In this document: one piece after another, positions 6,201-53,678 of the stretch | How positions within the stretch are numbered: the stretch's first letter is position 1 | Layout of the letters: each line of letters begins with the position of its first letter | Assembly (NCBI GenBank): GCA_964500125.1 | Contig: CAZCMV010000002.1 | Span: forward strand, 4,173 to 68,172 | Source of the DNA: an uncultured Bdellovibrionales bacterium | GTDB lineage: Bacteria; Patescibacteriota; Minisyncoccia; Moranbacterales; GWC2-37-73 | Reading direction: 5' to 3' | DNA length: 64,000 bases | The notes under the pieces: generated by a model | Databases searched by the model: none | Seen by the model: only the letters and a program-made list of their open reading frames with translations | Told to the model about the DNA's origin: nothing | Made by a program: the position numbers and the translations under genes

Positions 6201-6241
6201 AAGTTTATTTATTGAATGATAATCGTCAGATTAATTAATTA

Positions 6242-9673: not shown

Positions 9674-9921
9674 AAAAACACCTCTCATTGGAATTCCCTG
9701 GCTTCGAAAATTTCTTGGAAGCAGGAAAGCATCTCAATGAGCTTAGTTATTAGCGCTTATTTATTTATTGAATTGTAGATTCGCCATTCCCCTTGACACA
9801 TTTTCACCCGAAAATGGGCGAGATATAAGAATTGCAAAAGTGAAGTATTTCAGTCCTAAATCGTGAATGTATAAACAATCTATCAGTTTTTTTTGGCCCT
9901 GTCAAGCCTTGACCTCAATCT

Positions 9922-9941
9922 GTTATCCAAAGTTATCCACA
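9922..9941 (+). promoter_or_regulatory. tandem DnaA-box-like pair TTATCCAAA-G-TTATCCACA
   Basis: Exact 9-mer consensus TTATCCACA at 9933..9941 preceded by one-mismatch copy one helical turn upstream. Confidence 0.4.
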
Positions 9942-9967
9942 GGTTGTTAACATTTACCATATTTCCC

Positions 9968-9995
9968 TTGACAACCGTTTTTTTTGGCGTATTCT
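9968..9995 (+). promoter_or_regulatory. sigma70-like promoter (TTGACA-16 bp-TATTCT) for M23 peptidase gene
   Basis: -35 TTGACA 9968..9973, -10 TATTCT 9990..9995; followed by strong SD AAGGAGGTG at ~10019. Confidence 0.45.
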
Positions 9996-10119
9996 GGGAT
10001 CTTGTTGTTTAAAAATCCAAAAGGAGGTGGTGGGAATGGAGATTGGATGAATTTGCTTCTGTCTAAGGAAAAATCACTGAAAGACTTACACCAAATACCG
10101 GTTCGAAAAGGAGAAAACA

Positions 10120-12654: not shown

Positions 12655-13464
12655 CTATTTATCAACCTTACTCCAGTCCATCCCCCACGGGTCTGTTTTT
12701 CTCCCCGGTGCGATGTCTTTGTGACCCAAAACATATTTGATTGAATATTTCTTTTTCAGATTCACGATAAGAGAATTGAGAGCTGAGTATTGATCATCAG
12801 TATAATTATCTTTTTCCGTGTTAACCATTTCGATACCAATGGAAAAATTATTTACACCTGTGCGACCGTCCGGCACGCTGCTTTCTCCCGCATGATAGGC
12901 GATATTTTTTTCTGCGACAAGTTGCCAAATGGTGCCGTCGCGACCAATGAGATAGTGCGCCGAAACACCATATTGTTTATATTCTTTCAGTATGCCCTCC
13001 ACATCATAGACATCACCACCTAGCGCGTCATAAGATGAATGCACGATAATCGTATCAATCTTACGATTGTTTGTACTTTTATAACCCCAAGAAATTAAAT
13101 TGACTTTTGTTTTACCCGCACTTTGCGATTTTGTTTTATTTTCATCATCATTATTATTACTTTTTTTTATATCAGTCTTAGCAGTTTTATTATCGGCACC
13201 CTCTTTTGCAATGTCTTTACTTACATTATCTATTTGCTGAATATTTTCTGTATTTTCTTCACTACCATTTATAGCAGTAGCTTCTTGCCCAGAATTTATC
13301 GTGTTGTCACTAGGATTACTACTTTCAGAAAGTGCTAATATGGATACTTTCTTGGAATTATTTTCTCGATATTGCTTCACTTTCCCATACCCAAACCACC
13401 CACCCCCACCAATCAAAGCCAGAATTACTATTATAAATACTATTTTAAAAACTATTCGTGCCAT
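12655..13464 (-). CDS. N-acetylmuramoyl-L-alanine amidase, Amidase_2/PGRP family, membrane-anchored
   Basis: AHYLIGRDGTIWQ...AYHAG...NNFSIGIEMV...GHKDIAPGRKTDP motifs. Confidence 0.75.
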   Translation of the reverse strand: MARIVFKIVFIIVILALIGGGGWFGYGKVKQYRENNSKKVSILALSESSNPSDNTINSGQEATAINGSEENTENIQQIDNVSKDIAKEGADNKTAKTDIKKSNNNDDENKTKSQSAGKTKVNLISWGYKSTNNRKIDTIIVHSSYDALGGDVYDVEGILKEYKQYGVSAHYLIGRDGTIWQLVAEKNIAYHAGESSVPDGRTGVNNFSIGIEMVNTEKDNYTDDQYSALNSLIVNLKKKYSIKYVLGHKDIAPGRKTDPWGMDWSKVDK

Positions 13465-13508
13465 TCGAGTGTCCGCCAGCTGGCGGAATTCGTAAATTAG
13501 AGTCGCCT
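13452..13508. repeat. intergenic repeat element copy a (CCATTCG-GTGTCCGCC-hairpin-GGCGGAATTCGTAAATTAGAGTCGCCT)
   Basis: Near-identical to 35563..35645 apart from a hairpin indel; overlaps the amidase start codon. Confidence 0.6.
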
Positions 13509-17623: not shown

Positions 17624-18523
17624 ATGGAAACAAAAAACAAATTTACAACATTTTTTTTGATAATTCTTTTCATTATTTTTGCCTCATCAATAACAGTTAC
17701 TAAAACAGCAAGAGCTCAGTGGATAGTTCATGATCCTTTTGATATGCCAAACGATATCATGACAACAATTGAGTCAATTTTCACAACTATAGAGACAACG
17801 ATTACAGCCGTAGCAACTGATGGAATGTGGATGAATGAGGTTACTGACAGATACCTGGTGCCCATATTAAAAGTTGCTGCCATCGAAATGATGAATCAAA
17901 TAATCTCTAACATTGTTAGCAGCGGAAACGATGGTAAGCCTATGTTTGTAACAGATTGGAATGACTATCTTTACACGGCAACTGAGAAAGATGCTAAAGT
18001 ATATATGAACTCCTTTTTTAATAGTGTTAGTGCGGGTAGACTTTCCAATTTGAATTATGAAGGAGTTGGACAATCTTATGACAATTATCTTAAAAAACAA
18101 GCCGAGACAACACTATATGGTAACAAAAAAAATTCTACCACCAACATAAACAACTATGTCGATGACCCACGTCAAGATCTCTTTTCCAAGGGAAATTTTA
18201 AGGCTTTTTCTGCTTTTCTCTCCTGCTATAATAATCCCTATTGCTACTCACTTTCTGCTACAGTTGCCCACGAAAAAGAACTTGACCGCTTAAAAACTGT
18301 TGCCATAAAAGAAGCAAACACAAATGGTTATCTACCAAAAAAGGTAGACGGGAAAATAGTCACTCCGGGATCGCAATATCAGAGTGCAATGGAAGGAATT
18401 GATCAAATGGCAAATAACTGGTTTATGAACGCTACAACTTCCCCTGAGCTTATTACGGCACTTGCCGGCACAGTGGTTACAAAGGTAACTAAAAGCCTAA
18501 TCAATGGAATAGCTACCAATTAA
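17624..18523 (+). CDS. secreted hypothetical protein; N-terminus loosely TrbJ/VirB5-like (IVHDPFDMPND)
   Basis: Signal peptide then VxDPxxxxN helix-rich region reminiscent of TrbJ/VirB5 N-termini; weak. Confidence 0.4.
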   Translation: METKNKFTTFFLIILFIIFASSITVTKTARAQWIVHDPFDMPNDIMTTIESIFTTIETTITAVATDGMWMNEVTDRYLVPILKVAAIEMMNQIISNIVSSGNDGKPMFVTDWNDYLYTATEKDAKVYMNSFFNSVSAGRLSNLNYEGVGQSYDNYLKKQAETTLYGNKKNSTTNINNYVDDPRQDLFSKGNFKAFSAFLSCYNNPYCYSLSATVAHEKELDRLKTVAIKEANTNGYLPKKVDGKIVTPGSQYQSAMEGIDQMANNWFMNATTSPELITALAGTVVTKVTKSLINGIATN

Positions 18524-24781: not shown

Positions 24782-25276
24782 ATGAAAGAAGTCCTGACAA
24801 AATCAATTCAAGAAACGAAAAAACTCGCCCAAGAAATAGCGAGTGATTTTAAAGGTGGCGAGATTATTTGTTTATCTGGTGATCTAGGCGCAGGCAAAAC
24901 GACATTTGCTCAAGGTCTTTTGGAAACGCTTGGCGCCGAAGGACCTTATACAAGCCCGACATTTAATATAATCAAAGAATACAGAGTTGAGAATCTGGAA
25001 TTCAGAATAAGAATAGCGAATAAAGAATTTAAGGATGATGACGGATTCAAAATTCAAAATTCAAAATTCAAAATTCTTCGCATTTTCCATATCGATGCAT
25101 ACAGAATAAATTCCGATGATCTTCTTGAACTTGGCTTTCAAGATTTTGCAGGTAAAGAAAATACTGTCACCATCATCGAATGGCCGGAAAATGTGAAAGA
25201 CATAATACCCGAAACGGCAAAGTGGCTAGATTTTGAATGGCTTGATGAAAAAAAGCGCAAAATTTCAATAAACTAA
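24782..25276 (+). CDS. tsaE: tRNA threonylcarbamoyladenosine biosynthesis protein TsaE, with unusual internal insertion (start placed at MKEVLTKS)
   Basis: GDLGAGKTTFAQGL Walker A and SPTFNIIKEY motif; insertion ENLEFRIRIANKEFKDDDGFKIQNSKFKILRIF. Confidence 0.7.
   Translation: MKEVLTKSIQETKKLAQEIASDFKGGEIICLSGDLGAGKTTFAQGLLETLGAEGPYTSPTFNIIKEYRVENLEFRIRIANKEFKDDDGFKIQNSKFKILRIFHIDAYRINSDDLLELGFQDFAGKENTVTIIEWPENVKDIIPETAKWLDFEWLDEKKRKISIN
25045..25072 (+). repeat. heptanucleotide tandem repeat (ATTCAAA)x4 inside tsaE coding sequence
   Basis: Visible as attcaaaattcaaaattcaaaattcaaa. Confidence 0.8.
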
Positions 25277-35514: not shown

Positions 35515-35645
35515 ATCGTATGTAAGAGCGACTCTAATACGCTAATTTGTCACCCTAATGACTCTAATAAATCCATTCGGGTCATTAGAGTGTCCGCCTC
35601 CGCCAGTTGGCGGATGGCGGAATTCGTAAATTAGAGTCGCCTCTT
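35515..35645. repeat. composite intergenic repeat element copy b, MITE-like, with inverted termini GAGCGACTCTAAT ... ATTAGAGTCGCCTC and nested GC hairpin
   Basis: Four TTAGAGT/ACTCTAA cores in inverted symmetry; right half near-identical to 13452..13508. Confidence 0.6.
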
Positions 35646-40323: not shown

Positions 40324-41766
40324 ATGGCTATTGCAAGAAAAATCGCATACAATGTCGTGGTTAATGCCGCGGCGAAAGTGCTTTCTACGGTTCTGGCACT
40401 GGTAGCCATAGGGCTTGTGATGCGCTACTTAGGAAAGGATGGTTTTGGCGACTATGCAACAGTAATCGCCTTTTTCTCTTTCTTTGGTTCTATTGCCGAT
40501 CTTGGACTTTATTCAATTACAGCAAGAGAAATTTCCCGCCAAGGCGCAGACGAAGCTTATATAATCAACAATGTTTTCACTCTGAGAGCAATCAGCTCAC
40601 TCGTAGTCCTTTTATTGACCCCCTTATTTGTCATTTTCCTTCCATATTCTACCCAAGTGAAAACCGGCATTATCATCGCAGGGGCTTCTTTTGTATTTTC
40701 CTCAACATATATGGTACTCAATGGTGTTTTTCAGAAGCATCTTTCCATGGACCGTGTAGCCATTGCTGAAATCATTGGCAAAATCGTTCAAGTGGCAGTA
40801 ATCTACACCGCGATTAAAATGAATCTTGGTTTTGTTGCCATCGTCTGTTCAATACTTTTTTCCATGTTTGTTAATTTCACTCTTGTCCTCATTGCTGCCA
40901 GAAAATTTGTGAAACTACGTCTGAGCTTTGATTTCACTTATTGGAAAAAATTTCTGAAAGAATCATTGCCAATGGGCATAGCTGTAATCATAACTTTTTT
41001 CTATTTCAAAATGGATACAATTCTGCTATCCATACTTAAAAGCAGCAGCGATGTAGGCATATATAATGCCGCCTACAAAGTAATTGAAAATATAACCTTC
41101 TTTCCTTCCATGATTATCGGTTTAATGTTACCGATAATGTCTCTTCATATCTTTTCCAACCACAAAGAGTTCTGTCGCATTTCAAATGAAACTTTCAAAG
41201 TATTTGTATTAATGGTTGTACCTATTGTTATTGGCGGATTCTTTTTGGCTGAAAAAATAGTTACCATTATCGGTGGTGCCGAATTTATCGAATCAGCCAC
41301 AACACTTCGCATCCTTATTTTTGCTTTAGCATTCATATTCTTTGGAAACTTCTTCAATAACATCCTGATTGCTGCAGCCAAGCAAAAGACATTGATGTAT
41401 TCATTATCTGTTTGCGCCGTATTCAATATTGCGGCAAATGTCATTCTCATCCCTAAATTTTCCTACATTGCTGCCGCTTCTATTTCTGTAGCAACAGAAG
41501 CAATGGTGGTTTTACTTACTTTCTATTTAACCGCCAAACATGTCCATTATATGCCCAAATTCAAAAATGCTTTCGGAATTTTTGCCTCCGGAGTTATGAT
41601 GGCTATTTTTCTATTTTTTTTCCACGGCCAAAATTTCATCTTTGCCGCCGTTGGAAGTTCCCTTGTCTATTGTTTATTTCTTTGGTTAACAAAAACCATT
41701 ACAGCCAAAGAATTACTCAGCATAGTTTCAAGAAAACAAACATCTCCTTCAATTTCCTATGAATAA
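40324..41766 (+). CDS. polysaccharide/oligosaccharide flippase (Wzx/MOP family)
   Basis: 480 aa, ~12-14 TM helices, N-terminal Wzx-like pattern. Confidence 0.65.
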   Translation: MAIARKIAYNVVVNAAAKVLSTVLALVAIGLVMRYLGKDGFGDYATVIAFFSFFGSIADLGLYSITAREISRQGADEAYIINNVFTLRAISSLVVLLLTPLFVIFLPYSTQVKTGIIIAGASFVFSSTYMVLNGVFQKHLSMDRVAIAEIIGKIVQVAVIYTAIKMNLGFVAIVCSILFSMFVNFTLVLIAARKFVKLRLSFDFTYWKKFLKESLPMGIAVIITFFYFKMDTILLSILKSSSDVGIYNAAYKVIENITFFPSMIIGLMLPIMSLHIFSNHKEFCRISNETFKVFVLMVVPIVIGGFFLAEKIVTIIGGAEFIESATTLRILIFALAFIFFGNFFNNILIAAAKQKTLMYSLSVCAVFNIAANVILIPKFSYIAAASISVATEAMVVLLTFYLTAKHVHYMPKFKNAFGIFASGVMMAIFLFFFHGQNFIFAAVGSSLVYCLFLWLTKTITAKELLSIVSRKQTSPSISYE

Positions 41767-41785
41767 TTATCTAATCAACGCTAAA

Positions 41786-42637
41786 ATGCCAAAAGTTTCC
41801 ATAGTCATAACAAATTTTAACGGAATTAGAACGCTAGAAAAGTGTCTTTCTTGTGTTTTTAATTCAAATTATCCAAATTTTGACATAATAGTAGTCGATA
41901 ATCATTCAACCGACGGCTCCTTGGAGCTACTACGAAGAAAATATCCCTCTGTAAAATTAATCATGAATGCTGAAAATATCGGTTTTGGTGCAGCGACAAA
42001 TCTTGGCATGCGCCTAGCTTTTGAAAAATTTGCTGATTATGTTCTAGCGCTCAATAATGACGCCTATTTAGAAAAAAATACTCTTTCCAAATTAATCGAA
42101 AATGCAAAAAAAAATCCGCGTATCGGCATAATAAGTCCTTTGATTAAGCGCCCCGACGGCTCAATTTGGTTCGCAGGAGGAAAAATAGATTGGTGGAAAA
42201 TGAAAACCCTGCATAAATTTGCACCTTCCGATTCCAAACCATATCAATCTGCCTACATATGCGGTTGCGCAATGCTCATAAGTCAAAAACTTTGTGAAAA
42301 AATAGGTCTTTTCGACGAAAAGTTTTTTCTTTACTATGAAGATGCTGACTTTTCTTGGCGCGCAAAACAAGCAGGCTTTGAATTACTCGTTGACCCTTCG
42401 GTAAAAATAATTCATGATGAACAAAGCAGCCGTAACATTTCTTTTAAGACTTATTGGCTGGTGCTTTCAGGGATTTTGTTTTTTCACAAGAACACACCTT
42501 TTTTCATAAAACCCTGGATGCACTTTTATTTGTGGTTAAGAAAAATAAAAAATAAGCACAATCAAAAAAGTAGCCCTTCAAAAGTTGTTTCGACTGTGGC
42601 CAGAGCGTATGCTGATGCGGAAAGATTAACCAAATAG
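41786..42637 (+). CDS. family 2 glycosyltransferase
   Basis: VSIVITNFNG ... IIVVDNHSTDGS ... DxD region. Confidence 0.8.
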   Translation: MPKVSIVITNFNGIRTLEKCLSCVFNSNYPNFDIIVVDNHSTDGSLELLRRKYPSVKLIMNAENIGFGAATNLGMRLAFEKFADYVLALNNDAYLEKNTLSKLIENAKKNPRIGIISPLIKRPDGSIWFAGGKIDWWKMKTLHKFAPSDSKPYQSAYICGCAMLISQKLCEKIGLFDEKFFLYYEDADFSWRAKQAGFELLVDPSVKIIHDEQSSRNISFKTYWLVLSGILFFHKNTPFFIKPWMHFYLWLRKIKNKHNQKSSPSKVVSTVARAYADAERLTK

Positions 42638-42703
42638 AAATATACGAATCTTGCTTTGCTTACAAATTTGTATATTCGTAATAGAATTGTAATTCTTTGG
42701 ACA

Positions 42704-43477
42704 ATGGATATTTCTATAATCATCGTAAATTATCGCAGTCGTAAATATCTAGACAGATGTATTTCATCTGTAGAATCTTTCCTGACTAATCTTTCTTATG
42801 AAATAATCATAGTAAACAATGATCAAAAAATTTTAAATCTTTCCCTTCACAAAGTTTCAGTTATTGAAAATAATAATAATTGCGGTTTCGGCAAAGCGAA
42901 TAATATTGGCGCAGCCAAAGCCAATGGGAAATTGCTATGGTTTCTTAATCCTGATACTGAATTACTATCTTTTAATTTCCAGTTAATAAAAAAACTTTTT
43001 GAGGATAAAAGTATAGCGATTATTGGCACAAGACTGTTAACTGAAAAAAAGGAAGTGCAACCTTGGAGTGCTGGAATTGAAATTACTCCTTGGAATATCA
43101 TTAAATCAAATATTGGCTTAGATAAAAGTAATTTAATGTGGAAAAGCAACGCCACAAGATCGGTTGATTGGGTAAGTGGATGTTCATTTTTGATATCAAA
43201 AAAACTTTTTGGAAAAATAAAGGGCTTCGATGAAGCTTTTTTTATGTATTACGAAGATATTGATTTATGTCGACGGATAAAAATGCTTGACAAACAAATC
43301 TTGCTTGAACCAAAAATAAAAATTCTTCATTGGTGTGGCAAGAGCGCTGAAAATAAAAAACTGCAAAAGAAGCAATATTATCAATCTCAGGACAAATATA
43401 TTCAAAAACACTTTGGAAATTTTTCTCAAACTTGCATCCGGGCGCTACGTTTGCTATGCTCATGGAAAAGGCTCTAG
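42704..43477 (+). CDS. family 2 glycosyltransferase (start at MDISIIIVNY)
   Basis: ISIIIVNYRS ... FGKANNIG ... WFLNPDTEL. Confidence 0.75.
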   Translation: MDISIIIVNYRSRKYLDRCISSVESFLTNLSYEIIIVNNDQKILNLSLHKVSVIENNNNCGFGKANNIGAAKANGKLLWFLNPDTELLSFNFQLIKKLFEDKSIAIIGTRLLTEKKEVQPWSAGIEITPWNIIKSNIGLDKSNLMWKSNATRSVDWVSGCSFLISKKLFGKIKGFDEAFFMYYEDIDLCRRIKMLDKQILLEPKIKILHWCGKSAENKKLQKKQYYQSQDKYIQKHFGNFSQTCIRALRLLCSWKRL

Positions 43478-43494
43478 AAAGCCAATTTCTATTC

Positions 43495-44769
43495 ATGCAA
43501 ATTATGTCTCAAATCTTGCTCGGCATATTTTTATTATATCTTCCTTGGCAAATTGCCATAAATCCAATCGAAGGGGTTGATCTGGCTTCAGCGCGCATTT
43601 TTTCCTTGTTTATTTTCATTATATGGCTTATTGAAAGCCTTTTTTCGCGTAATTTCAAAATTAATCTGCGTTTGCAATCTCTTTGTTTGCTTGTTTTTTT
43701 ATTTTTTGGCTTATTTTCCCTACTTTTTGCCCAATATCCAACTTGGGGACTCAGAAAACTGTTATTTTTGCTTTCCTTTGTCCCAATTTATTTTGTAGTA
43801 GCAGATTTGGCAACAAATCCTAGAAGCAAATTTTCCCTTATTAAAGCCTTAGTTTTAGGAGCTTCCTCAATTTCATTTCTTGGACTTATTCAGTTTACCG
43901 CTCAATATTTCGTTGACAAAAGTCTCTTGGCTCAATTTTGGGGTCATTATATTTCACCTTTATTTTTAGGCAAATCTTTTGCAGCTGCCGTCCAAGATTA
44001 TCCCAGCTGGTTTGTTAATATCGCTGGCAGAGATTACTTTCGCGCAATTTCCGTTTTTCCCGATCCACACATGTTGGCTTTCTTTACCGGAATGACTTTG
44101 CCCTTTGCCATATCTATATATTTAAAAAGCAAGCGCTTTCGTTATTTTTGGCTCTGCTTCGCCTTTATACTTTTGGCGACAAATCTGCTAACTTTCTCTC
44201 GAGGGGGATATTTGGGATTACTTTTAGCCTTTTTCTTTTTTATACTTTGGCTGTTTCTAAATCATCGCCCAAATCTCTCCAGGGGAACGATAATAGGCAC
44301 AGGAATCATTTTTGTGGTCATTTTAGTATCTGTCTGCGGGCCAATTGGAAATCGTCTGATAAGCTCATTTTCGTCCTCTGAGGGCTCCAATGCTGGAAGA
44401 ATTCAAACTTGGCAAGCCGCTTTTTCTGTTATCGCTTCTCATCCTATGGGCGTAGGCATCGGAAATTATGCATTAGAAATAAAACCAAGCGCAGATTATC
44501 GCGAACCCATCTATGCACACAGCCTTTATTTGGACATTGCCGCCGAAACAGGCCTTATTTCACTTCTTTTCTTTATTACATTTTTATTTGCTACAATAAA
44601 GTCATTCCTTGCGACATCAAGAACAGATCTTTTCGCAGTTGCTGGATTTTTAAGTATCATTGTTTTTGCTGCGCATTCCTTGGTAGAAAACCCAATATTT
44701 TCAGTTCATGTATTGCCTGTTTTTCTTATTATAAGCGCTTTTAGCACACCGTATGAAAAAAAAATATGA
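43495..44769 (+). CDS. O-antigen ligase / Wzy_C-family membrane protein (start uncertain: 43432/43456/43495)
   Basis: Polytopic; SRGGYLGLLLAFFF loop motif typical of O-antigen ligase family. Confidence 0.55.
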   Translation: MQIMSQILLGIFLLYLPWQIAINPIEGVDLASARIFSLFIFIIWLIESLFSRNFKINLRLQSLCLLVFLFFGLFSLLFAQYPTWGLRKLLFLLSFVPIYFVVADLATNPRSKFSLIKALVLGASSISFLGLIQFTAQYFVDKSLLAQFWGHYISPLFLGKSFAAAVQDYPSWFVNIAGRDYFRAISVFPDPHMLAFFTGMTLPFAISIYLKSKRFRYFWLCFAFILLATNLLTFSRGGYLGLLLAFFFFILWLFLNHRPNLSRGTIIGTGIIFVVILVSVCGPIGNRLISSFSSSEGSNAGRIQTWQAAFSVIASHPMGVGIGNYALEIKPSADYREPIYAHSLYLDIAAETGLISLLFFITFLFATIKSFLATSRTDLFAVAGFLSIIVFAAHSLVENPIFSVHVLPVFLIISAFSTPYEKKI

Positions 44770-45952
44770 TCCTATAATTATTTCTATCTGTCTCACTATT
44801 GTCAGCTTGCCTCTATATCTTGTTAAGTTTTCTTTTTTTAGTCTACCTCTAAATCTTCTTTTGCTAATTTCCTTGTTTTCCTTGCTAGTAATAATTTCAC
44901 ACACTTCTCTCAAAAATGCTTTTTTATTTTTAAAAAACAACCGACTTATTATTTTTTTCACTTTGCTAATAATTTTCGGCTGCCTTTTGTCAATTTGGCA
45001 CAACGGCTTTTCACCAAGATCATTTTCTATTTTTATTCAATGGATTTTATTACCTGCCATCTTTGGTTTTTTTGCGGCCATAAATTTGCAAAATAAAGAA
45101 TCTCAACTGGACACTATTTTACTTTCTTTGTTCGTTTCAACTACTTTTGTTTCAGCAATAGCTTTATCCTACGCCATCCTAGGAATTTTTACTTACGATA
45201 GCCGCCTAAAAGCCTTCTATGAATCACCCAATCACTTGGCGATGTACATCATGCCAGGAGTTTTTCTCGGCACTTATTTTTTCATCAAAGCAAAGAAAGA
45301 AGATTTACTTGATAAGTCCTTGCTATATTCAATTTTAACTGTTTTTATAATTATTACTTTAACATTAACAAAATCAGCAGGTGCGATGATTGCAGTCCTT
45401 TTTTCTTTACCTTTGGCCTTCTTTTTTATCCGGAGTGGTCTTTTTCGCTACACTGCCAGATTAATACTTCTGTTTGGTTTTACTTTTTTGCTGTCACTTA
45501 GTTTGTTTAGTGCTACCCAAATCACTTATTTGTCGCATGTACCGGAAAGATCATCCTTGGCTTCCCGCTTCATGATTTGGCAATCAGCAACAAAAATATT
45601 GCTTGATAATCCGCTTTATGGCATAGGTCCAGGAAACTTTCAAGCAAAATATCTGGCCTATCAAAAATATTTCCCACCTTATTTGGAATGGGCCGTGCCA
45701 GAGCCGCATAATTTATATTTGGCATTTTGGCTACAGACTGGTTTGCTTGGATTTATTGGTTTTATTCTTTTAGTCTTACTTGTCTTGAAATCACTTGCAT
45801 TTAAAACCAAACAAAAAAATGCCTTGCTTGCTTGGACGCTTTTGGGCATTTTTGTTGCTCTTCTTATGCACGGATTGATTGATACGCCTTATTGGAAAAA
45901 TGATCTGGCTTTTGTTTTTTGGATATTATGCGAAATTGCTTTCCTAATCTAA
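44753..45952 (+). CDS. second O-antigen ligase-like membrane protein
   Basis: Polytopic; TKSAGAMIAVLFSLPLAF loop and conserved His near C-terminus. Confidence 0.5.
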   Translation: MKKKYDPIIISICLTIVSLPLYLVKFSFFSLPLNLLLLISLFSLLVIISHTSLKNAFLFLKNNRLIIFFTLLIIFGCLLSIWHNGFSPRSFSIFIQWILLPAIFGFFAAINLQNKESQLDTILLSLFVSTTFVSAIALSYAILGIFTYDSRLKAFYESPNHLAMYIMPGVFLGTYFFIKAKKEDLLDKSLLYSILTVFIIITLTLTKSAGAMIAVLFSLPLAFFFIRSGLFRYTARLILLFGFTFLLSLSLFSATQITYLSHVPERSSLASRFMIWQSATKILLDNPLYGIGPGNFQAKYLAYQKYFPPYLEWAVPEPHNLYLAFWLQTGLLGFIGFILLVLLVLKSLAFKTKQKNALLAWTLLGIFVALLMHGLIDTPYWKNDLAFVFWILCEIAFLI

Positions 45953-46692
45953 CTTCCTGTATCATATACTTGCTGCTTTATTTCATTTAAACATTTCACT
46001 GAATTGGTTATTATTATAAAATCATCCACTATTTCATAAGAAATACTGCTAACTTGATCATCAGGCATCCTTACCTTGGCATATCTTTGATATTTACCAT
46101 CAAACATCAGTTCTTGCTGTAAATGCTCCGGAGAAAAACTAATTTCCGGAAAAATAACTGATTTAACATCTTGCAACATGGTTTTCTCCCAATTCTTCAT
46201 GAAGCTAACTTCATCCATATAAAGATCTCCTTCATAACCTTCCATCAACTTAATCTTTAACAGGATTCCCATGCCTTTAAAAGTTTCCTGGGAACTGAAG
46301 GAGCACACGAAATTGCTATAATCATTCGTTTCAAGCAAACTGTATAAATTGTCTTCTATATTTAAATTAATCGCCTTGGCAAATTCATCGAGTTTTGCAG
46401 AAGTTCCGGCAGAATCTAACCACACTGTCTCTTTGCTGATTGGCGAAGAAACAAATTTAGAAAATGAATCCCTGATTTCATTTTCTTTGCTCCCCTTTTC
46501 AGATTTTTCAATATCTGAAATTTCGTTATTCACGGGTCTTTCCACTATTGGCATTTCAGATAATTGCTGTTGATCATTTTTTGGTTCAACAAAAACATTA
46601 TTTTTTTTATCAAAATAAACTGCAATGGCAATTACCACTATTGATATAATACTTAACACTGAAATTGCAATTAAAACTATTTTTTTATTCAT
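45949..46692 (-). CDS. hypothetical N-terminally anchored protein (247 aa), last gene of envelope operon
   Basis: Single N-terminal TM; no domain recognised. Confidence 0.4.
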   Translation of the reverse strand: MNKKIVLIAISVLSIISIVVIAIAVYFDKKNNVFVEPKNDQQQLSEMPIVERPVNNEISDIEKSEKGSKENEIRDSFSKFVSSPISKETVWLDSAGTSAKLDEFAKAINLNIEDNLYSLLETNDYSNFVCSFSSQETFKGMGILLKIKLMEGYEGDLYMDEVSFMKNWEKTMLQDVKSVIFPEISFSPEHLQQELMFDGKYQRYAKVRMPDDQVSSISYEIVDDFIIITNSVKCLNEIKQQVYDTGS

Positions 46693-46701
46693 ATTGTTTT
46701 T

Positions 46702-47586
46702 TTATTTACAATAATCAGACGCTCTTATAACACCTTTGCAGTTGGCCATATCTTTGGAAGTAACATTACCATTAACTAAACCAGTTTTTGTTCCTGCAGC
46801 ATGAATCTTAACCGTACATCCCTCATTTTTACAAATAAACACATGTCCTCCGGAAAAAGACGATGGGCTTCTTATGACAACCGCATCTCCTGTATGTAAA
46901 GAGCTTTGGGGAACACATCCTTTGGTACGACTAGCCATTTGCCCCGTAGAACCACCGGGGGATTTGCATCCGGCGTTTTTATAGGCATTTTCAACAAAAT
47001 TTGAACAATCAGTATAGGGAGGATTTCCCTTACAGCCATTTCTCGAACAACCATACTTGGGATTACAATAACGACAACCGCTATTTTTTAATTTTTCCGC
47101 AGCATCTAATACCTGACCTTTTGCAACGCTATTATCATTACCATCCGAAAATTTCACAGGTCCTTCTGCAGCATTTGGCATTGATGCCGTATTTACTTCT
47201 ACTGAAATCAAATTAAGATTCAATTTTACCAAATCCGGATTGATAACATAAAGCAAAATATATGCTGTAAGCACTGCAACCAATCCAATAATAGCATCGG
47301 TTATGATATTTTTAGCAGTGGTTATGGAAGCATTGTTTCCTGCACTAGTTACATAAAGAAAACCTCCCACAGTAAGCATGAAAAAAGCTGCAATACCTAC
47401 GGTCCAAATAAAGAATTTGTAAATAGCAGAAAGAAGGTCAGGAAAAGAAGGTGATGAACCAGCATTAAAGAATCCCGGAAATTGTTCGAGAAGTTTGTAT
47501 TCAAATGCTGCTTGAGCATGCTGAGACAAGAGAAAGCAAAAAGATATACTCAGGCAGAAGCAAAGAAAAAATTTCTTGCTTTTCAT
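46702..47586 (-). CDS. bitopic membrane protein: conserved two-helix N-module (pilin-like) fused to C-terminal CHAP-type amidase/peptidase domain
   Basis: N-module identical to paralog 49242..50168; C-terminus DCSNFVENAY...GDAVVI...GGHVFIC (Cys and His of CHAP). Confidence 0.55.
   Translation of the reverse strand: MKSKKFFLCFCLSISFCFLLSQHAQAAFEYKLLEQFPGFFNAGSSPSFPDLLSAIYKFFIWTVGIAAFFMLTVGGFLYVTSAGNNASITTAKNIITDAIIGLVAVLTAYILLYVINPDLVKLNLNLISVEVNTASMPNAAEGPVKFSDGNDNSVAKGQVLDAAEKLKNSGCRYCNPKYGCSRNGCKGNPPYTDCSNFVENAYKNAGCKSPGGSTGQMASRTKGCVPQSSLHTGDAVVIRSPSSFSGGHVFICKNEGCTVKIHAAGTKTGLVNGNVTSKDMANCKGVIRASDYCK
47204..47571. repeat. 368-bp direct repeat copy 1 (one mismatch to 49754..50121)
   Basis: Identity verified by eye over the whole length; encodes the shared N-terminal module. 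Confidence 0.9.
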
Positions 47587-47597
47587 ATGTTTATTTT

Positions 47598-48746
47598 CTA
47601 TAGTTTTATTTTATAAATCTTGGAATCTATTTTGTTTATAAAAAACAATGCATCTTCGTTATTGGAAAGAAAAATCTTGGAAGCATCATATTTCTCAGAC
47701 AATTCATTGAGTTCAACAATTCTTTCCTTTTTTCCTGTTTCAATGTTTATCTTCCAAAAAGTATCAACTGTATTAAATTTTTCTGCAAGATAATCGTTAG
47801 GAATCACAACATTCTCAGGAATCCCACCCGGCAAAGCATAATATACGGTTTTATTGTCCGACGACCAAACACACTTAGATGCAAATGTAGGAATTCCCAA
47901 GTTTTTATATTCGCCATTCTTGTCAATTATGCCCAGAACAATTTTCTTGCTGTTTTCTTCTTCAAGACTGCTGATAATAGCGTGTTGTCCATTTGGCGAC
48001 CATAAATAATCGGCTCCAAATTTTCCTCCGAATATTTTTTTCAAATCGGTTCCGCCTATGCCTACCACAAAAAGTTGCGTTTCTTCAGATGCCCAGGGGG
48101 AATTCCAAAAAGAAATATTTGAAGATTGCGGCACAGCCGAAACACTCACATGCTTAAATGGAATATCAACAATTTTTTTCCAATTGCTGCCGTCCGGATC
48201 GGCCACATTCAGCGTTCTTTCTTTTTTTTGCGAATCGAAATATTTATATATTATTTTCGCTCCGATTCCATCCCATTTCACTGTATCAAGGTTTTCTTTT
48301 AACTTAGTACCCTTACCGTTAGCATAGTTATACGTATAAAATTCCGTCTTGCCTTTTTTATCAAACGTAGATATCACTTGAACGCCATCAGGTGACCAAG
48401 TAACACTTTGAAGTCCAACTAACTCTTCGTCTGCAACGCTTTTTTTTCCGGAAGCATCCGTATTAACGTCCCAAACCCTTCCATCAACAGCATAGTACCT
48501 AATCATTTCAGAATCTTTAACATAAGCAGCACTAACAACGCCCTCATCGGAAACAGCTGCAACAATTCCTTTTTTGTCAGTTCCGATATCTGAAAACATA
48601 TCGCCTTCTTTTTTTATAGAAACGTTTGTGTCTTCAATATTAGCATTTTTAGCATTTTTATTACTAAAAGCAAAATTATACACACCCCAAAAAAACAGGG
48701 TGATTCCTAATACGATCAGAGTTATAATAAATATTTTTTTGATCAT
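47598..48746 (-). CDS. TolB-like beta-propeller protein (PD40/WD40-like repeats), N-terminal anchor
   Basis: Repeated ...SPDG/SPNG... blades (TWSPDGVQV, YLWSPNGQH, VWSSDNKTVYY). Confidence 0.5.
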   Translation of the reverse strand: MIKKIFIITLIVLGITLFFWGVYNFAFSNKNAKNANIEDTNVSIKKEGDMFSDIGTDKKGIVAAVSDEGVVSAAYVKDSEMIRYYAVDGRVWDVNTDASGKKSVADEELVGLQSVTWSPDGVQVISTFDKKGKTEFYTYNYANGKGTKLKENLDTVKWDGIGAKIIYKYFDSQKKERTLNVADPDGSNWKKIVDIPFKHVSVSAVPQSSNISFWNSPWASEETQLFVVGIGGTDLKKIFGGKFGADYLWSPNGQHAIISSLEEENSKKIVLGIIDKNGEYKNLGIPTFASKCVWSSDNKTVYYALPGGIPENVVIPNDYLAEKFNTVDTFWKINIETGKKERIVELNELSEKYDASKIFLSNNEDALFFINKIDSKIYKIKL

Positions 48747-48773
48747 TTTTATAAAGAATTTATTCTGTCATTA

Positions 48774-49235
48774 TCAAAAAAAAGATTTTCCGTTCGGACA
48801 AAAACTAAGTCCATAATTTTCCCCCGCCAATTCATTGTTTACATTGTATGGAAAAGTCAAATATACATCCAACTTGCATGCTTCCTCTTCATTTATTTTG
48901 AGTGTTTGCAAAAAGTCTTTTTCCGCCTCATCACGAGCATCGTTTTCATTTTCTTTGGCTAATATAAGAATAACAAAATTATTATCTTCCTCAAAATAGG
49001 TAGTGTTAAAATTTTGTTTTTCTCTGAAAGTAATGGTTCCTGAAAATTTTTCTGCAGAATCAGAATATATTGCACTACTATCAAAATTATTCTGCACGTT
49101 TTCTGATATATTCGAAGGATTTGTGCTGTTTGTTTTTTCAAAACCTTTGTCTTGTTTCGGTAACATGAAAAAAACAACTCCTGCGCTAATCAATATCAGA
49201 ATAATTACAATTATTATTATTCTTTTTTTTCTCAT
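48774..49235 (-). CDS. hypothetical small anchored protein (153 aa)
   Basis: N-terminal TM; Asn/Glu-rich. Confidence 0.35.
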   Translation of the reverse strand: MRKKRIIIIVIILILISAGVVFFMLPKQDKGFEKTNSTNPSNISENVQNNFDSSAIYSDSAEKFSGTITFREKQNFNTTYFEEDNNFVILILAKENENDARDEAEKDFLQTLKINEEEACKLDVYLTFPYNVNNELAGENYGLSFCPNGKSFF

Positions 49236-49241
49236 ATTTTT

Positions 49242-50168
49242 TTAAAAATGGCATGACTTATTAGTGCTCCATTGATTCCAACCCAATCTTAGAATCTTAC
49301 AAGATATTTGTATATTGAAACTAGCATCTTTTAATTTTCTTTTGCATTCTTCATATTGTGCTTCTTTGCCGCTTTTCACTTCACAATCATATCCTTTGTT
49401 CCCTATCCTTTTTCCTTGCATGCCACCGCCGTATGTATTAAAAAGCTTGTCACATCCAGGAATCCTATATCCGTTTGCAATTAAATTAACTTGAAAAAGA
49501 CCCACGGAAAATGCTTGTTTTTTTCCATTATGTATACAAACATCGGATGTGCTTTCCAGGGCAGGCACTCCTTCACTTTCCAAGTGGCATATGGATGAGG
49601 CCTTTTTTGCTGCTGCTCCAAAACAAGTATTACTCAGTGTTTCTACGGAACAAGGTGTTTTTGTTTCAGGAGTGCATTTTTTGTCTGAACGACCTCCTCC
49701 AGTGACGCTTCTAGTTTCACTTTGTTCCGTCCTTAATTCATTTAAATTCAAAGAAATCAAATTAAGATTCAATTTTACCAAATCCGGATTGATAACATAA
49801 AGCAAAATATATGCTGTAAGCACTGCAACCAATCCAATAATAGCATCGGTTATGATATTTTTAGCAGTGGTTATGGAAGCATTGTTTCCTGCACTAGTTA
49901 CATAAAGAAAACCTCCCACAGTAAGCATGAAAAAAGCTGCAATACCTACGGTCCAAATAAAGAATTTGTAAATAGCAGAAAGAAGGTCAGGAAAAGAAGG
50001 TGATGAACCAGCATTAAAGAATCCCGGAAATTGTTCGAGAAGTTTGTATTCAAATGCTGCTTGAGCATGCTGAGACAAGAGAAAGCAAAAAGATATACTC
50101 AGACAGAAGCAAAGAAAAAAATATCTGACCAGTTTTCTTGGTTTTCTTTTTTTTGTTTTTATATTCAT
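49242..50168 (-). CDS. bitopic membrane protein: same N-module fused to lytic-transglycosylase (SLT/lysozyme-like) domain
   Basis: CHLESEG...AFSVGLFQVN resembles SLT catalytic Glu-Ser and GLMQ motifs; Cys-rich. Confidence 0.5.
   Translation of the reverse strand: MNIKTKKRKPRKLVRYFFLCFCLSISFCFLLSQHAQAAFEYKLLEQFPGFFNAGSSPSFPDLLSAIYKFFIWTVGIAAFFMLTVGGFLYVTSAGNNASITTAKNIITDAIIGLVAVLTAYILLYVINPDLVKLNLNLISLNLNELRTEQSETRSVTGGGRSDKKCTPETKTPCSVETLSNTCFGAAAKKASSICHLESEGVPALESTSDVCIHNGKKQAFSVGLFQVNLIANGYRIPGCDKLFNTYGGGMQGKRIGNKGYDCEVKSGKEAQYEECKRKLKDASFNIQISCKILRLGWNQWSTNKSCHF
49754..50121. repeat. 368-bp direct repeat copy 2
   Basis: See copy 1. Confidence 0.9.
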
Positions 50169-50209: not shown

Positions 50210-52990
50210 TCAAACAGTTTTATTTTTACCCAATCCCGGTGTGACATAGAAAATAGCTCCCATAACAACAATCATCAAGACAGCAGTTAATGCAAGTCTC
50301 AACAAAAACATCATCTCTCCTGGAAGATTGCTTACCAGACTTGCCATTAATCCTCCTTTTGCCTTGGCTAATTCATCATAACTTTGAACAACTTCCACCT
50401 CCGCCGAGGAGTCCAAATACCTTTCCGTTGCATCTTGTGCGGAAACTCCCCAAATATTATAAAGGGCTTTTCTCACATTCAAAACCTGCTCTTCATCTGT
50501 CGCCATAGCATAAACAGCTTCTATTGAAACATCGTAAGTAGAGCCCTCCCCATTTTCTGCAAGAAACTCAAGGTTTTCACTGTTTGCATATTGATCACCA
50601 TCAACTTCCCAAAAATAAGTCGCATAGCTGCTTATCCATGATGGCGTGAAAGCAGCCTTCATAAACACGCTGTTTCCTTGAATCGTTTCAAAAAGAATAC
50701 TACTATTATCAGCGGTTTCATTTCCCTCCATATCTTTGTATATTCCCAGTTGTTTGGGCCACACTAAATCCTTATTCGCAGATTCTATATTCACAGATGG
50801 TTGCACTATCTTAAATTTTCTATTCACTGTTTGAGCCATTTTTGTTTTCGTGTCTTTGAATGTAACTTCGGCTTCAAATATTTCTCCGTCTGTTCCAACT
50901 GCTGGAAAAAATATAATGTTACTACCCGTTTCTTTGCATTCAGAAGAATGTTCACTATTGCAAAAAACATTTTCTTTGTTTATTTTCCAAGAAAAATTCA
51001 CTAATTGACCATCCTTATTAGGAATAGCTAAACCTATTATGGAATTTTCTATTATAGGACATTCTGCAAGTTCCTCTCCCTCTGTACAAATCTCACTATC
51101 CTTTTTTAAACTAATCTTACCATCATCATCCGCTTTTACCAGATAAGCATCTATATCAGTGCTAGATTTAGTTAATTGTACAATAGCTGATCCCCTACCT
51201 ATCCTATTTTGTTCCGAAGAATTTTCAGATACCTTGGCTTTTATTCTTATATATTGTACCAGTCTATTGGAACCATAAAAAATGTCATCTGGAAATTCAG
51301 CCTTAAATTCAAACTCATTAATACCAAAACCTTTCATTGTTGAATGTTTTTCTAATTTATTTGTGACATCAATCCATTTATCATCCAAGGGCGCTTTTGT
51401 TCCATCATTACTTGCCTCAACGGTCCACTCATAATAAAGAGAAGAAACATCATCTGTTCCACTGACGGTCGTTTGTGCTTTTATATTATCACCCGTGCCG
51501 GTGCGCGTAGAATCATTATTTGCTCTACTTGGATTAGCTAAAACATTTACTTCTAAATTTCCAACACCACCTCCGGTCGGATCCAAAAGATTTTCTTCAA
51601 GACAATCATTTAAATCAAAATCAACCGTGAGGAATCCTGTGTCAATTTGAGGAACTTTTTGATATTCAACATAAAAAGCTCTCTTCTTTTTTATTTCATC
51701 ACTAAATTTCTTACAAACATTATTTGAGAAAGCCCAAGTTCTCATATAGGCATTGTCATCATGCTTGGTAGCAACAGCACTAATACCCTCAACAGCAAGC
51801 CCTACCTGATCCCCAGACCTATAAGTCCAAGAAAATGACTTCGCTCCCAAACCAAGCACATTAGCCTCGTCCGGAATACCGTTTTCGGCAGTAGACTTAT
51901 TATTTGGATCAGTTCCCCAAAATTTCTCCTCAGCCATTTCAAAATCCCCGTCTCCAGTTTTTATATTTGAACCACGAAGATCCTTAGGAGCAACTTGGGT
52001 TGGAAACAAATGCTTACAAAGATTATTAGATTTCTTGAAAGTACAGGTTGGCGATCCTGTTGATATAACAGAACACATCCCTCCAGCACTCAGATCCTCT
52101 TTTAAAATATTGCATATAAACTCCTTATTTGCAGAATCGTTGACAATATATTCAAAAATAGTCCTATTTGATTGTCCGCAAACCGGATTTTTTTGTTGTG
52201 TCGAAGCTAAACCACTGATTTGAGGACACTTAACTCTAGCTTGAAAATTTTCAACATCCTCATCACTTTCCACTTTGCACTCATAATCGTCAGTCTCTGC
52301 ACATATATTGCGAGTACCGGATTCACAAGTTATCAACTCATTTTTACCACAAGCCACAGATCCTCCTGATTCACAAGAATAAACAGGGATCGTTTTTCTT
52401 AACTCATAAAATCTTCCTTTTTCAAAATCTTGAATATAACAATCCTCTATATCCACATCATTTTGAGATTTATATGGCATTTCCCAATCACCAGGATCAG
52501 GACTAACCTCATACCCATCACTATTGGAATCACTAGAGCTATTATAATCAGTATCATTCTCCTTATCAAAGTCTCCTTTAGCAATTATTTTAGCAGCCTC
52601 TATCTTCCAATCATTAACTGTAATCTTGCCATCATTATCCCTATCACATGAACCACCTGAAGATCCTAATTCACAGCCCTCTCTTTTTAAATACCAAGTA
52701 TAATAAAGTTCATCAGAATCTTCTTTAAATCCCTGTGGTAAGGCTTGTGCCACTATCTTATCTCCGGTTCTGGCTGTTAGATTATCAAATGTCACCTTAA
52801 CTTCCACGCCTTGTTTTTTCATAGAAGCTGAGTATGCCTCTTTTAAATCAGAGGGGCGTAATAATTGTATCCTTCCCCCAACTACTGGATCAGCTGCCAA
52901 AGAAAAAAGTGGAGATAAAATTAAAACAATAACTTGAAAAGTTAAATAAAAAATAAATATTATTTTTTTTGTTTTAAAAAAAGAATTCAT
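50210..52990 (-). CDS. 926-aa Cys-rich secreted surface protein with EF-hand/dockerin-like Ca sites and C-terminal TM anchor
   Basis: Signal peptide; DRDNDGKITVND; GTDPNNKSTAENGIPDE; more than 40 Cys; C-terminal LALTAVLMIVVMGAIFYVTPG helix. Confidence 0.55.
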   Translation of the reverse strand: MNSFFKTKKIIFIFYLTFQVIVLILSPLFSLAADPVVGGRIQLLRPSDLKEAYSASMKKQGVEVKVTFDNLTARTGDKIVAQALPQGFKEDSDELYYTWYLKREGCELGSSGGSCDRDNDGKITVNDWKIEAAKIIAKGDFDKENDTDYNSSSDSNSDGYEVSPDPGDWEMPYKSQNDVDIEDCYIQDFEKGRFYELRKTIPVYSCESGGSVACGKNELITCESGTRNICAETDDYECKVESDEDVENFQARVKCPQISGLASTQQKNPVCGQSNRTIFEYIVNDSANKEFICNILKEDLSAGGMCSVISTGSPTCTFKKSNNLCKHLFPTQVAPKDLRGSNIKTGDGDFEMAEEKFWGTDPNNKSTAENGIPDEANVLGLGAKSFSWTYRSGDQVGLAVEGISAVATKHDDNAYMRTWAFSNNVCKKFSDEIKKKRAFYVEYQKVPQIDTGFLTVDFDLNDCLEENLLDPTGGGVGNLEVNVLANPSRANNDSTRTGTGDNIKAQTTVSGTDDVSSLYYEWTVEASNDGTKAPLDDKWIDVTNKLEKHSTMKGFGINEFEFKAEFPDDIFYGSNRLVQYIRIKAKVSENSSEQNRIGRGSAIVQLTKSSTDIDAYLVKADDDGKISLKKDSEICTEGEELAECPIIENSIIGLAIPNKDGQLVNFSWKINKENVFCNSEHSSECKETGSNIIFFPAVGTDGEIFEAEVTFKDTKTKMAQTVNRKFKIVQPSVNIESANKDLVWPKQLGIYKDMEGNETADNSSILFETIQGNSVFMKAAFTPSWISSYATYFWEVDGDQYANSENLEFLAENGEGSTYDVSIEAVYAMATDEEQVLNVRKALYNIWGVSAQDATERYLDSSAEVEVVQSYDELAKAKGGLMASLVSNLPGEMMFLLRLALTAVLMIVVMGAIFYVTPGLGKNKTV

Positions 52991-53015: not shown

Positions 53016-53678
53016 TCACTTAATCGCTATAACACTTGCATCAACTATGATCAAAAAAATAATATGCGCAATAGTAGAATAAACCAAAGACTTGCTCTTA
53101 AATACAATAATTCCTGAAAATAAGGAAAATATTAAATAAGGTACAAAATACCAATCAAGAGAATTTGTAAGTACAAGAAGTAGAAAAAAAACAATTGTTT
53201 GCGCTAATATTGCAAAATAACCTATTTGTTTTTTCAAGGAAAGCATCAGAAATCCCCTGAAAAAAAATTCATAAAATACTACAAAAGGAAGTACTAGTGA
53301 AAATTCATAAAATAAAAATTTAAAAAAGTTTGCCTGAATTTCTCCTTCCAAAATATACTGCAATGAAAATTCTGTATAATAAAAAACCACATAAAAAAAC
53401 AACAGTGCTATAAGCAAGGAAATGAAACCGTATAAAAAACCTTTTCTCCATTCACCTAAACAAATACCTATCTCTCTAAGAGGTTTTTTTGTAACAATTA
53501 AATTGAAAAAAAATGGGACCAATAAGAAGAAAGATATGGTTACTGCAATATTTTGAAAATTATTTTTTGTGGGAAAAATCGAATAAATAACGACAATAAA
53601 TATTGCAAATAAACTGTTGAAAATAACTTCTTTTTTCATATTTTGTTTTATAAATATTGCAAATAGATTATAACACAT
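53016..53678 (-). CDS. CPBP/Abi-family intramembrane metalloprotease-like protein (start uncertain; possibly MKKEVIF near 53639)
   Basis: Polytopic; YEFFFRGFL (EExxxR-like) and STIAHIIFL (HxxxN/D-like) motifs. Confidence 0.5.
   Translation of the reverse strand: MCYNLFAIFIKQNMKKEVIFNSLFAIFIVVIYSIFPTKNNFQNIAVTISFFLLVPFFFNLIVTKKPLREIGICLGEWRKGFLYGFISLLIALLFFYVVFYYTEFSLQYILEGEIQANFFKFLFYEFSLVLPFVVFYEFFFRGFLMLSLKKQIGYFAILAQTIVFFLLLVLTNSLDWYFVPYLIFSLFSGIIVFKSKSLVYSTIAHIIFLIIVDASVIAIK

Follow-up and report, generated by a model that had tools for sequence, protein, structure and literature searches.

Paralogous bacterial genes can evolve in concert through gene conversion, as tufA/tufB do in Salmonella and pilE/pilS do in Neisseria. 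Polymorphic toxin systems (Rhs, CdiA-CT, LXG, MafB) combine a conserved N-terminal trafficking region with swappable C-termini and a cognate downstream gene. In Patescibacteria, VirB2-like type IV secretion system (T4SS) pilins have been identified with the Pfam profile PF18895, T4SS genes lie near dnaA, and most T4SS loci appear to be without a VirB1 hydrolase (Quinonero-Coronel et al. 2025, PMC12102498); in Southlakia epibionticum, the one species tested, the T4SS and its VirB2-like pilin array proved essential to living as an epibiont (Wang et al. 2023, PMC10633639). CwlT (ICEBs1), TraG (pIP501) and PrgK (pCF10), VirB1-type hydrolases from Gram-positive conjugation and thus also found in a T4SS context, are membrane-anchored proteins that unite a transglycosylase or muramidase with an NlpC/P60 or CHAP endopeptidase in one polypeptide behind a plain transmembrane anchor (in part PMC12102498). 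Here we analyse a 64-kb stretch of DNA, the window (W), in which two genes of one operon, A and B, carry a near-perfect 368-bp direct repeat that encodes most of a signal peptide and a whole pilin-like hairpin (the module) in front of two unrelated peptidoglycan hydrolases (the cargo). The best explanation, which we consider likely, is that the modules are old paralogues homogenised by recurrent gene conversion. Loci and contigs compared with the window carry the prefix L, and proteins the prefix P.

The locus resembles the Patescibacteria pilins (PMC12102498, PMC10633639) in its PF18895 match, its signal peptide and two hydrophobic helices, its position near the origin and, in relatives, its adjacency to virB4. 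The described pilins, however, are short, stand-alone and divergent within their arrays (mean 25%, maximum 54% identity; PMC12102498), whereas the module in the window is fused to hydrolases of ~170 amino acids, its paralogues are 85–100% identical and the locus is without virB4. Compared with CwlT, TraG and PrgK, the two activities are split over two genes on pilin-like modules, and other species carry other cargo (M15/VanY-like, C39-like). Like tufA/tufB and pilE/pilS, the copies are more alike within a genome than to their orthologues, with homogenised synonymous sites, sharp boundaries and patchy tracts; here, however, only the N-terminal module would be converted, the remainders of the genes being unrelated, and unlike in pilE/pilS the outcome would be homogenisation rather than diversification, with no silent cassettes. 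The arrangement shares with Rhs, CdiA-CT, LXG and MafB a conserved N-terminal module, at least nine wall-targeting C-terminal families to a slot (slot 1, see below) and cargo-specific small genes downstream. It departs from them in that partner genes are missing for 8 of 17 SLT_3 genes and for all LAS-like cargo, and in that a pilin-like hairpin takes the place of a known toxin-delivery domain as the trafficking module. The searchable literature holds no description of pilin-hydrolase fusions, or of their gene conversion, in the candidate phyla radiation (CPR). Gene conversion and modular hydrolases are both known; what is new is homogenisation limited to a T4SS-pilin carrier module with exchangeable wall-hydrolase cargo, across a candidate phylum.

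Base-by-base comparison of the window places repeat copy 1 at 47204..47571 (minus strand), where it covers most of the gene A signal peptide and the whole pilin-like module, and copy 2 at 49753..50120 (minus strand), where it encodes the same part of gene B. The copies, direct and offset by 2549, agree at 367 of 368 bp. Their lone mismatch (47554 G versus 50103 A on the plus strand) reads TGC versus TGT on the coding minus strand, both Cys, and is therefore synonymous. Outside both ends of the repeat, identity collapses at once. Chance cannot produce a 368-bp match. Self-comparison of the 64 kb in both direct and inverted orientation found no second repeat that reaches 40 bp; the remaining exact repeats of at least 25 nt are a 28-mer at 13481/35615 and a 25-mer within a short tandem repeat near 25045. 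A preliminary description of this DNA had reported the long near-perfect direct repeat and the lack of any other, and the self-comparison confirms both. Its coordinates are right for copy 1 but one base too high for copy 2 (49754..50121, which taken literally gives 250 mismatches), and its mismatch position, 47553, is one base off.

Gene A (46702..47586, minus strand) encodes 294 amino acids arranged as a signal peptide, a PF18895 hairpin, a disordered linker (residues 121–152) and an NlpC/P60 endopeptidase, the catalytic domain of which spans residues 153–294 (46705..47130, minus strand). Gene B (49242..50168, minus strand; 308 amino acids) starts with an n-region of its own, continues with the signal peptide and pilin-like module seen in A, and ends in a lysozyme-like (SLT_3/GH23-type) domain with its core at about residues 165–308 (49245..49676, minus strand). 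Both open reading frames (ORFs) are intact and have the residues FLCFCLS...NLNLIS in common: at its 5′ limit the repeat begins within the hydrophobic core of the signal peptide, and at its 3′ limit it stops eight codons past a conserved INPDL motif, at ...NLNLIS. The n-regions differ (MKSKKF... in A, MNIKTKKRKPRKLVRYF... in B, that of B being 11 residues longer), as do the ribosome-binding regions, and the C-terminal halves are unrelated. A shared N-terminal module with unrelated remainders and differing start regions had been described before and is what both reading frames contain. Hydropathy analysis of A delimits three segments, the signal peptide (6–24) and two long hydrophobic helices (51–83 and 88–120), and an AlphaFold2 model (mean pLDDT 76.5) places helices at 3–25, 48–80 and 85–115, followed by the disordered linker and a confident globular domain. 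The signal peptide is probably cleaved after AQA. Judged by the Pfam curated gathering cut-offs (26.6 bits for PF18895, 23 for PF00877 and 27 for SLT_3), both proteins match the T4SS_pilin family PF18895, A at residues 48–115 with 32.3 bits and B at residues 59–126 with 31.3 bits.

The cargo of gene A had been labelled CHAP, but NlpC/P60 fits better. It matches PF00877 above the cut-off (27 bits), has no Pfam CHAP match, and retrieves MepS/Spr, C. difficile Acd24020 and SagA as its top Foldseek matches (E ~1e-4, target TM-score ~0.7); the CHAP structures LysGH15 and LysK stand in the same list at E 0.26–0.34 only, far weaker than the NlpC/P60 matches. Across 27 homologues, neither Cys194 (within YTDCS) nor His248 varies. 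CHAP and NlpC/P60 belong to the same papain-like clan. Gene B alone scores 17.2 bits against SLT_3 (PF18896), below the cut-off of 27. Its cargo belongs to a 17-strong orthologous cluster, 16 members of which were aligned and scanned; nine of these, B included, match SLT_3 at E ≤0.01 (best E 7.2e-8), and the alignment has the catalytic pair E59-S60 and G85-L86-x-Q88-x-N90 invariant, in a GLFQ(I/V)N motif. The earlier SLT-like label for B is thus upheld through the orthologue family, although B by itself stays under the SLT_3 cut-off. In the PDB, this cargo finds a weak endolysin match (7q4s, E 0.28).

A protein search retrieved A and B themselves, from a 107-kb NCBI contig, as well as contigs of other organisms that each encode a pair of module-bearing proteins; exact-protein look-ups of A, B, P0001 and P0002 in a contig index gave no match. 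A scan of one genome per GTDB species yielded 63 loci, mostly labelled Moranbacteria or related Patescibacteria. The operon is matched gene by gene in two JGI contigs, L001 and L002, both of which contain a near-perfect direct repeat of their own, ~400 bp long and spaced 2555–2563 bp. The order CPBP gene, big-protein gene, module gene(s), propeller gene, Wzy gene ... yidC, dnaA is conserved in ~50 of the 63 loci, and two separate clades have the combination of SLT_3, propeller and LAS-like genes. In slot 1, the position before the propeller, the SLT_3 cargo is orthologous across 17 loci, with 36–71% amino-acid identity in the pairs compared. Against this old, syntenic background the modules pair by genome. 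In 15 two-module loci the copies within a genome are 85–100% identical in DNA, whereas the best match elsewhere, in other species, reaches 63–81%; two genomes beyond these, L067 and L070, have copies that are 100% identical. Counted by genome, such pairing holds for 16 of 17 two-module genomes, and in a neighbour-joining tree the two copies are sisters in 14/14 species. Synonymous divergence (dS) between paralogues is 0 in W, L002, L015, L018 and L050 and extends continuously up to 0.89 (L012), while dS between orthologues is above 1 or saturated (1.3 or saturated from the window module to its orthologues).

Old syntenic paralogy combined with copies that are undiverged within genomes argues for gene conversion. 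Purifying selection, which leaves synonymous differences in place and alone cannot give dS = 0, was rejected as the cause of the likeness. The homogenised tracts measure 211–424 bp (by windowed extension, which slightly overshoots their ends) and in most genomes begin in the signal-peptide core and reach as far as the helix 2 end or the linker, with four that are shorter at one end; this is the span over which the two genes are homologous. A closely related pair of assemblies offers a finer view. L001 (JGI) and L004 (a GTDB metagenome-assembled genome, MAG) are 99.975% identical over 20,303 bp and differ at only five positions, all synonymous third positions within 16 bp of module copy 2, and at all five L004 has the copy-1 base. 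This patch looks like a short conversion tract. Gene conversion was one of the options raised in the preliminary description, and the pairing of modules by genome, despite a two-gene order that is syntenic across species, bears it out. An old fixed duplication, ubiquitous and diverged in relatives, had been named there as contrary evidence; the duplication is indeed old and widespread, but its copies are undiverged within genomes.

Several observations weigh against this explanation. In L068 (3952-4257 / 6106-6426) and L069 the two modules are only 72% identical in DNA, which shows that homogenisation is not obligatory and can lapse. Many species have a single fusion only in the locus, so that copies are also gained and lost. 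The patch in L004 could in principle be a popped assembly bubble instead, although the same assembly keeps single-base differences between paralogues a few hundred bases off, and consensus building by the assembler could have made the two copies in the window look slightly more alike than they are. Other points concern the pilin character of the module. Protein annotation of the 64-kb window reveals no virB4 or other T4SS ATPase; the module has no sequence or fold match to solved VirB2/TraA pilins; and the isolated hairpin retrieves only generic helical hairpins in Foldseek, with E >1.

Such findings would suit a module that is a plain two-helix anchor, with A and B as housekeeping autolysins that serve growth and division of the cell's own wall and have no tie to a pilus or T4SS, a reading that is compatible with gene conversion. 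The generic fold, the missing T4SS ATPase and the position of the operon next to genes of envelope biosynthesis (two for Wzy, two for GT2 and one for a flippase) all speak for it, as does the lack of a match to TrbC or to a solved pilin: the canonical TrbC/VirB2 profile PF04956 was matched by 0/9 modules, and a profile search of the PDB with the module returned only an insignificant SpaQ match. All nine module sequences tried, in contrast, match PF18895, the window module with 35 bits against a cut-off of 26.6. Further, in 17 relatives the gene next upstream of the CPBP gene, and hence of the same operon, encodes a VirB4 homologue (TraC_F_IV/DUF87/AAA_10 in L070); in the window's own clade this position is taken by lspA, UPF0102 and PNPase. 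Together with the proximity of the operon to dnaA, this agrees with the T4SS organisation reported for Patescibacteria (PMC12102498). Short stand-alone pilin-like genes also accompany the fusions in many loci. Between W and L001, amino-acid identity is 83% for the module, 76% for the big protein, 64% for the propeller and 39% for the SLT_3 cargo; the module is thus the best-conserved part of the operon, above what a simple anchor would need, which argues that it is more than a passive anchor. We therefore regard the plain-anchor interpretation as rather unlikely, though one to be taken seriously. The VirB2/TrbC resemblance proposed in the preliminary description stands as far as PF18895, topology and the virB4 gene upstream in 17 relatives are concerned, and does not extend to a canonical TrbC/VirB2 match in sequence or fold.

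The module family is large, with 42,478 clusters at 50% identity (E ≤1e-3), and its closest 150 members are mostly fusions of 280–400 amino acids; for one distant member, P0112, matches to both PF18895 and PF04956 are recorded. Five further proteins (P0121, P0122, P0158, P0211 and P0214), 500–620 amino acids long, contain 4–7 separate module matches each and are either tandem-module polyproteins or tandem pilin genes fused by gene calling. L061 (labelled Patescibacteria) and L063 (labelled Pseudomonadales) hold five tandem short pilin-like genes (8222-10207), arrays that are like the published divergent VirB2 arrays and unlike the homogenised fusions. Several TPA co-assembly MAGs (L004, L010, L011, L016, L018, L023, L028, L039 and L063) have the operon typical of Moranbacteria but bear the title 'uncultured Bdellovibrionales' or 'Pseudomonadales', which looks like mislabelled taxonomy.

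Taken alone, the window, with 367 of 368 bp identical and dS = 0, is what a fresh copy would give, and the preliminary description accordingly listed a very recent duplication of the N-terminal module onto a second gene, without ongoing conversion, as another option. We judge this very unlikely. The two-gene arrangement with differing cargo is syntenic across many species, with slot-1 cargo that has diverged to 36–71% identity, and the modules are closest within each genome along a continuum of paralogue dS from 0 to 0.89. Independent recent duplications in 16 lineages, each into the same two slots, would be far less parsimonious and are not credible, which leaves recurrent conversion. Grafting the module onto an existing gene would itself be a recombination or conversion event.

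Behind the constant module, the cargo varies. The C-terminal parts of the module proteins fall into 11 families, and thus the N-terminal module is indeed fused to other C-terminal domains among relatives, as the preliminary description had proposed to look for. SLT_3, SLT (PF01464), VanY/M15, Peptidase_C39_2 and NlpC/P60 can be named; several families have LAS-metallopeptidase-like H..D / HxH motifs, from which their putative assignment derives, and others have no Pfam match. Slot 1 holds at least nine cargo families across species and slot 2 holds four. In the window, slot 2 contains NlpC/P60 followed by tm247, while the nearest relatives, with modules 72–83% identical, have LAS-like cargo there and no tm247. 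At least nine families in one slot, together with differing slot-2 cargo in relatives, indicate that cargo is swapped behind the module.

Small genes follow some of the cargo. Directly downstream of B lies tm153 (48774..49235, minus strand; 153 amino acids), and directly downstream of A lies tm247 (45949..46692, minus strand; 247 amino acids); each product has one N-terminal transmembrane helix, and the two are unrelated. The tm153 family occurs only after SLT_3 (9/9), and 9 of 17 SLT_3 genes have it; the pair stands in slot 1 of W, L001, L002 and L067. Likewise, tm247 follows four of five NlpC/P60 genes, those of W, L016, L067 and L070; the NlpC/P60-type gene of L068 is without this partner. 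A third family (cluster 4; 202–241 amino acids) occurs only after SLT (4/4). No copy of the LAS-like cargo has a partner gene. The exchange of cargo, sometimes with its partner gene, behind a constant module is therefore real on evolutionary time, and to that extent the cassette exchange or variation suggested in the preliminary description holds.

Two contigs touch on the tempo of such exchange. L003 (ENA ERZ724086; 1333 bp, 2.2x) is 99.85% identical to L001 12363-13020, covering the end of the propeller gene and module copy 2, and, precisely where the repeat stops, passes into an SLT (PF01464) cargo that the corresponding slot in L001 does not have. It is either a mis-assembled third paralogue or a real allelic cargo swap. 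Considered as proof of an allelic swap, L003 was downgraded, being 1.3 kb long, covered 2.2x and switching exactly at the repeat end, and because another contig, L071 (see below), shows that such graph artefacts occur. In L033 (1555-5197) a big-protein gene is followed by a module::SLT fusion, a partner gene of the 202–241-amino-acid family and Wzy, without the propeller gene; this is the layout expected if two modules recombined in an L011-like ancestor and the intervening genes were deleted.

Programmed fast variation, in which repeat-mediated phase variation, a shufflon or a diversity-generating retroelement would switch the displayed enzyme, could draw on both contigs, since direct repeats 2.5 kb apart can delete the genes between them, L033 is the expected deletion product and L003 could represent a different allele from a strain that is 99.85% identical. 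This is very improbable indeed. No recombinase, invertase or reverse transcriptase is found among the annotated neighbours, the repeats are direct rather than inverted, the mismatches show no adenine specificity (the one in the window is C/T on the coding strand, and the differences in L001 are mixed synonymous ones), and L003 and L071 are explicable as paths through an assembly graph. Diversity-generating retroelement, invertase and shufflon were ruled out on the first three of these grounds. Two scans of metagenome contigs, one for a 25-mer of the repeat in the window and one for a 30-mer of that in L001, gave zero matches.

An assembly artefact, in which a short-read assembler collapsed or mis-threaded the repeat so that the copies or their flank linkage are unreal, is hardly credible: although 368 bp exceeds typical short reads, six contigs (L007, L057, L058, L060, L062 and L066) end inside the module right after the big-protein gene, L003 switches cargo exactly at the repeat end, and L071 is a de Bruijn cycle (1763 bp, the 1733-bp repeat period plus 30), 17 genomes from independent assemblies and pipelines have two modules in the same syntenic places, module identities are graded from 72 to 100% rather than uniformly perfect, the two copies in the window retain a mismatch and flanks of their own, the flank linkage in the window is that of relatives (SLT_3 with tm153 in W, L001, L002 and L067; NlpC/P60 with tm247 in slot 2 of W, L016 and L067), and the B-specific N-terminus MNIKTKKRKP is also found in the slot-1 orthologue P0017. 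L071 itself (Logan SRR29884472) corresponds to L070 6070-7803, where two identical modules lie 1733 bp apart, and contains a tm247-like gene, the module, NlpC/P60 cargo and the start of a tm247-like gene; a graph cycle of this kind, which the perfect repeat causes, might also be mistaken for an excised circle or for duplication in tandem.

A and B belong to an operon of seven minus-strand genes with intergenic gaps of 6–41 nt, in the order CPBP, 926-amino-acid protein, B, tm153, propeller, A and tm247, and all seven products have an N-terminal signal peptide or at least one transmembrane segment. The first gene (53016..53678, minus strand) encodes a CPBP/Rce1-like intramembrane protease (PF02517, E 7.7e-9). 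It is followed by the conserved first large gene of the operon (50210..52990, minus strand), the big protein referred to above, whose product of 926 amino acids is secreted, has a C-terminal transmembrane anchor and belongs to no known family. Between the repeat copies lies the gene for a membrane-anchored TolB-like beta-propeller of 382 amino acids (47598..48746, minus strand), which is conserved in ~50 related loci and matches TIGR02800 at E 2.7e-8, far below that model's cut-off. PDB sequence searches with the 926-amino-acid protein and the propeller were uninformative, and a promoter and terminator scan of the operon found no enrichment over shuffles. The operon lies ~9–12 kb from dnaA and is convergent with two Wzy-type genes. 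The window is chromosomal, with 38% GC and the markers dnaA, dnaN, yidC, jag, gyrA, PNPase, polA, ftsH and tilS, and its relatives place this uncultured, ultra-small bacterium in Moranbacteria (Patescibacteria/CPR).

Between yidC/jag and the operon stand two tandem Wzy_C (O-antigen ligase/polymerase-like) genes, two GT2 genes and a Wzx/MurJ-type flippase gene (40324-43477 and 43432-45952, both plus strand), an arrangement that nearly all related loci keep. The window holds two further wall hydrolases, namely an M23 peptidase that includes an InlB B-repeat-like domain, and an Amidase_2 protein (10120-11469, plus strand, and 12655-13464, minus strand), as well as a 299-amino-acid ORF (17624-18523) with a sub-threshold DUF4141 match. 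The 28-nt exact repeat (TGGCGGAATTCGTAAATTAGAGTCGCCT; 13481-13508 and 35615-35642) has a similar GC-rich GAGTGTCCGCC...GGCGGA sequence just before it at both sites. One copy is directly upstream of where the amidase gene starts, the second directly downstream of dnaN, and the repeat is possibly a small repeated element with a regulatory or terminator role. The tandem repeat at window position ~25045-25075 is intergenic and consists of ~4–5 copies of the heptamer ATTCAAA.

If gene conversion is indeed the cause, A and B would be old paralogues, each built of a Sec signal peptide, a VirB2-like two-helix hairpin, a flexible linker and an extracellular peptidoglycan hydrolase. Homologous recombination between the copies 2.5 kb apart, probably RecA-type and non-reciprocal, would repeatedly overwrite one copy with the other, and the conversion tract would stop where homology stops, its 5′ limit being the gene-specific n-region and its 3′ limit the linker with the unrelated cargo. 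The shared module may also serve as a recombination handle for the exchange of cargo, often with the cargo-specific downstream gene. As in VirB2-type pilins, the hairpin would be inserted with both ends outside the cell, so that the hydrolase is held outside on a flexible linker of ~30 residues. The module would meet a single partner, either other copies in a T4SS pilus-like polymer or the T4SS itself, and identical modules would keep both enzymes compatible with that same assembly partner. B is predicted to cut glycan strands and A to cut peptide stems; the target may be the cell's own peptidoglycan, in VirB1-like assembly of the channel, or the wall of the host on which the organism lives.

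In Moranbacteria the pilin-like module itself carries wall hydrolases, and its copies appear to be actively homogenised, whereas published pilin arrays diversify. The fusions may accordingly co-assemble with a T4SS or pilus, the hydrolases may act on the wall of a host rather than on the organism's own, and the small downstream proteins may inhibit the cargo they follow. In practice, perfect repeats of 300–400 bp interrupt short-read MAG assemblies, or cause them to be threaded wrongly, at a locus of functional importance. More tentatively still, and as a possibility we think doubtful but worth stating, Moranbacteria might display interchangeable wall hydrolases on a T4SS pilin scaffold as polymorphic effectors against a host, with the downstream proteins as cognate inhibitors. 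If so, the VirB2-like module would be a polymerising or trafficking handle; tm153, tm247 and cluster 4 would protect the producer from its own cargo; and conversion would keep all carriers fit for one machine while supplying the homology for cassette swaps. Such pilin-fused effectors would amount to a new effector-delivery logic for T4SSs and would explain the apparent absence of a separate VirB1 from most Patescibacteria T4SS loci.

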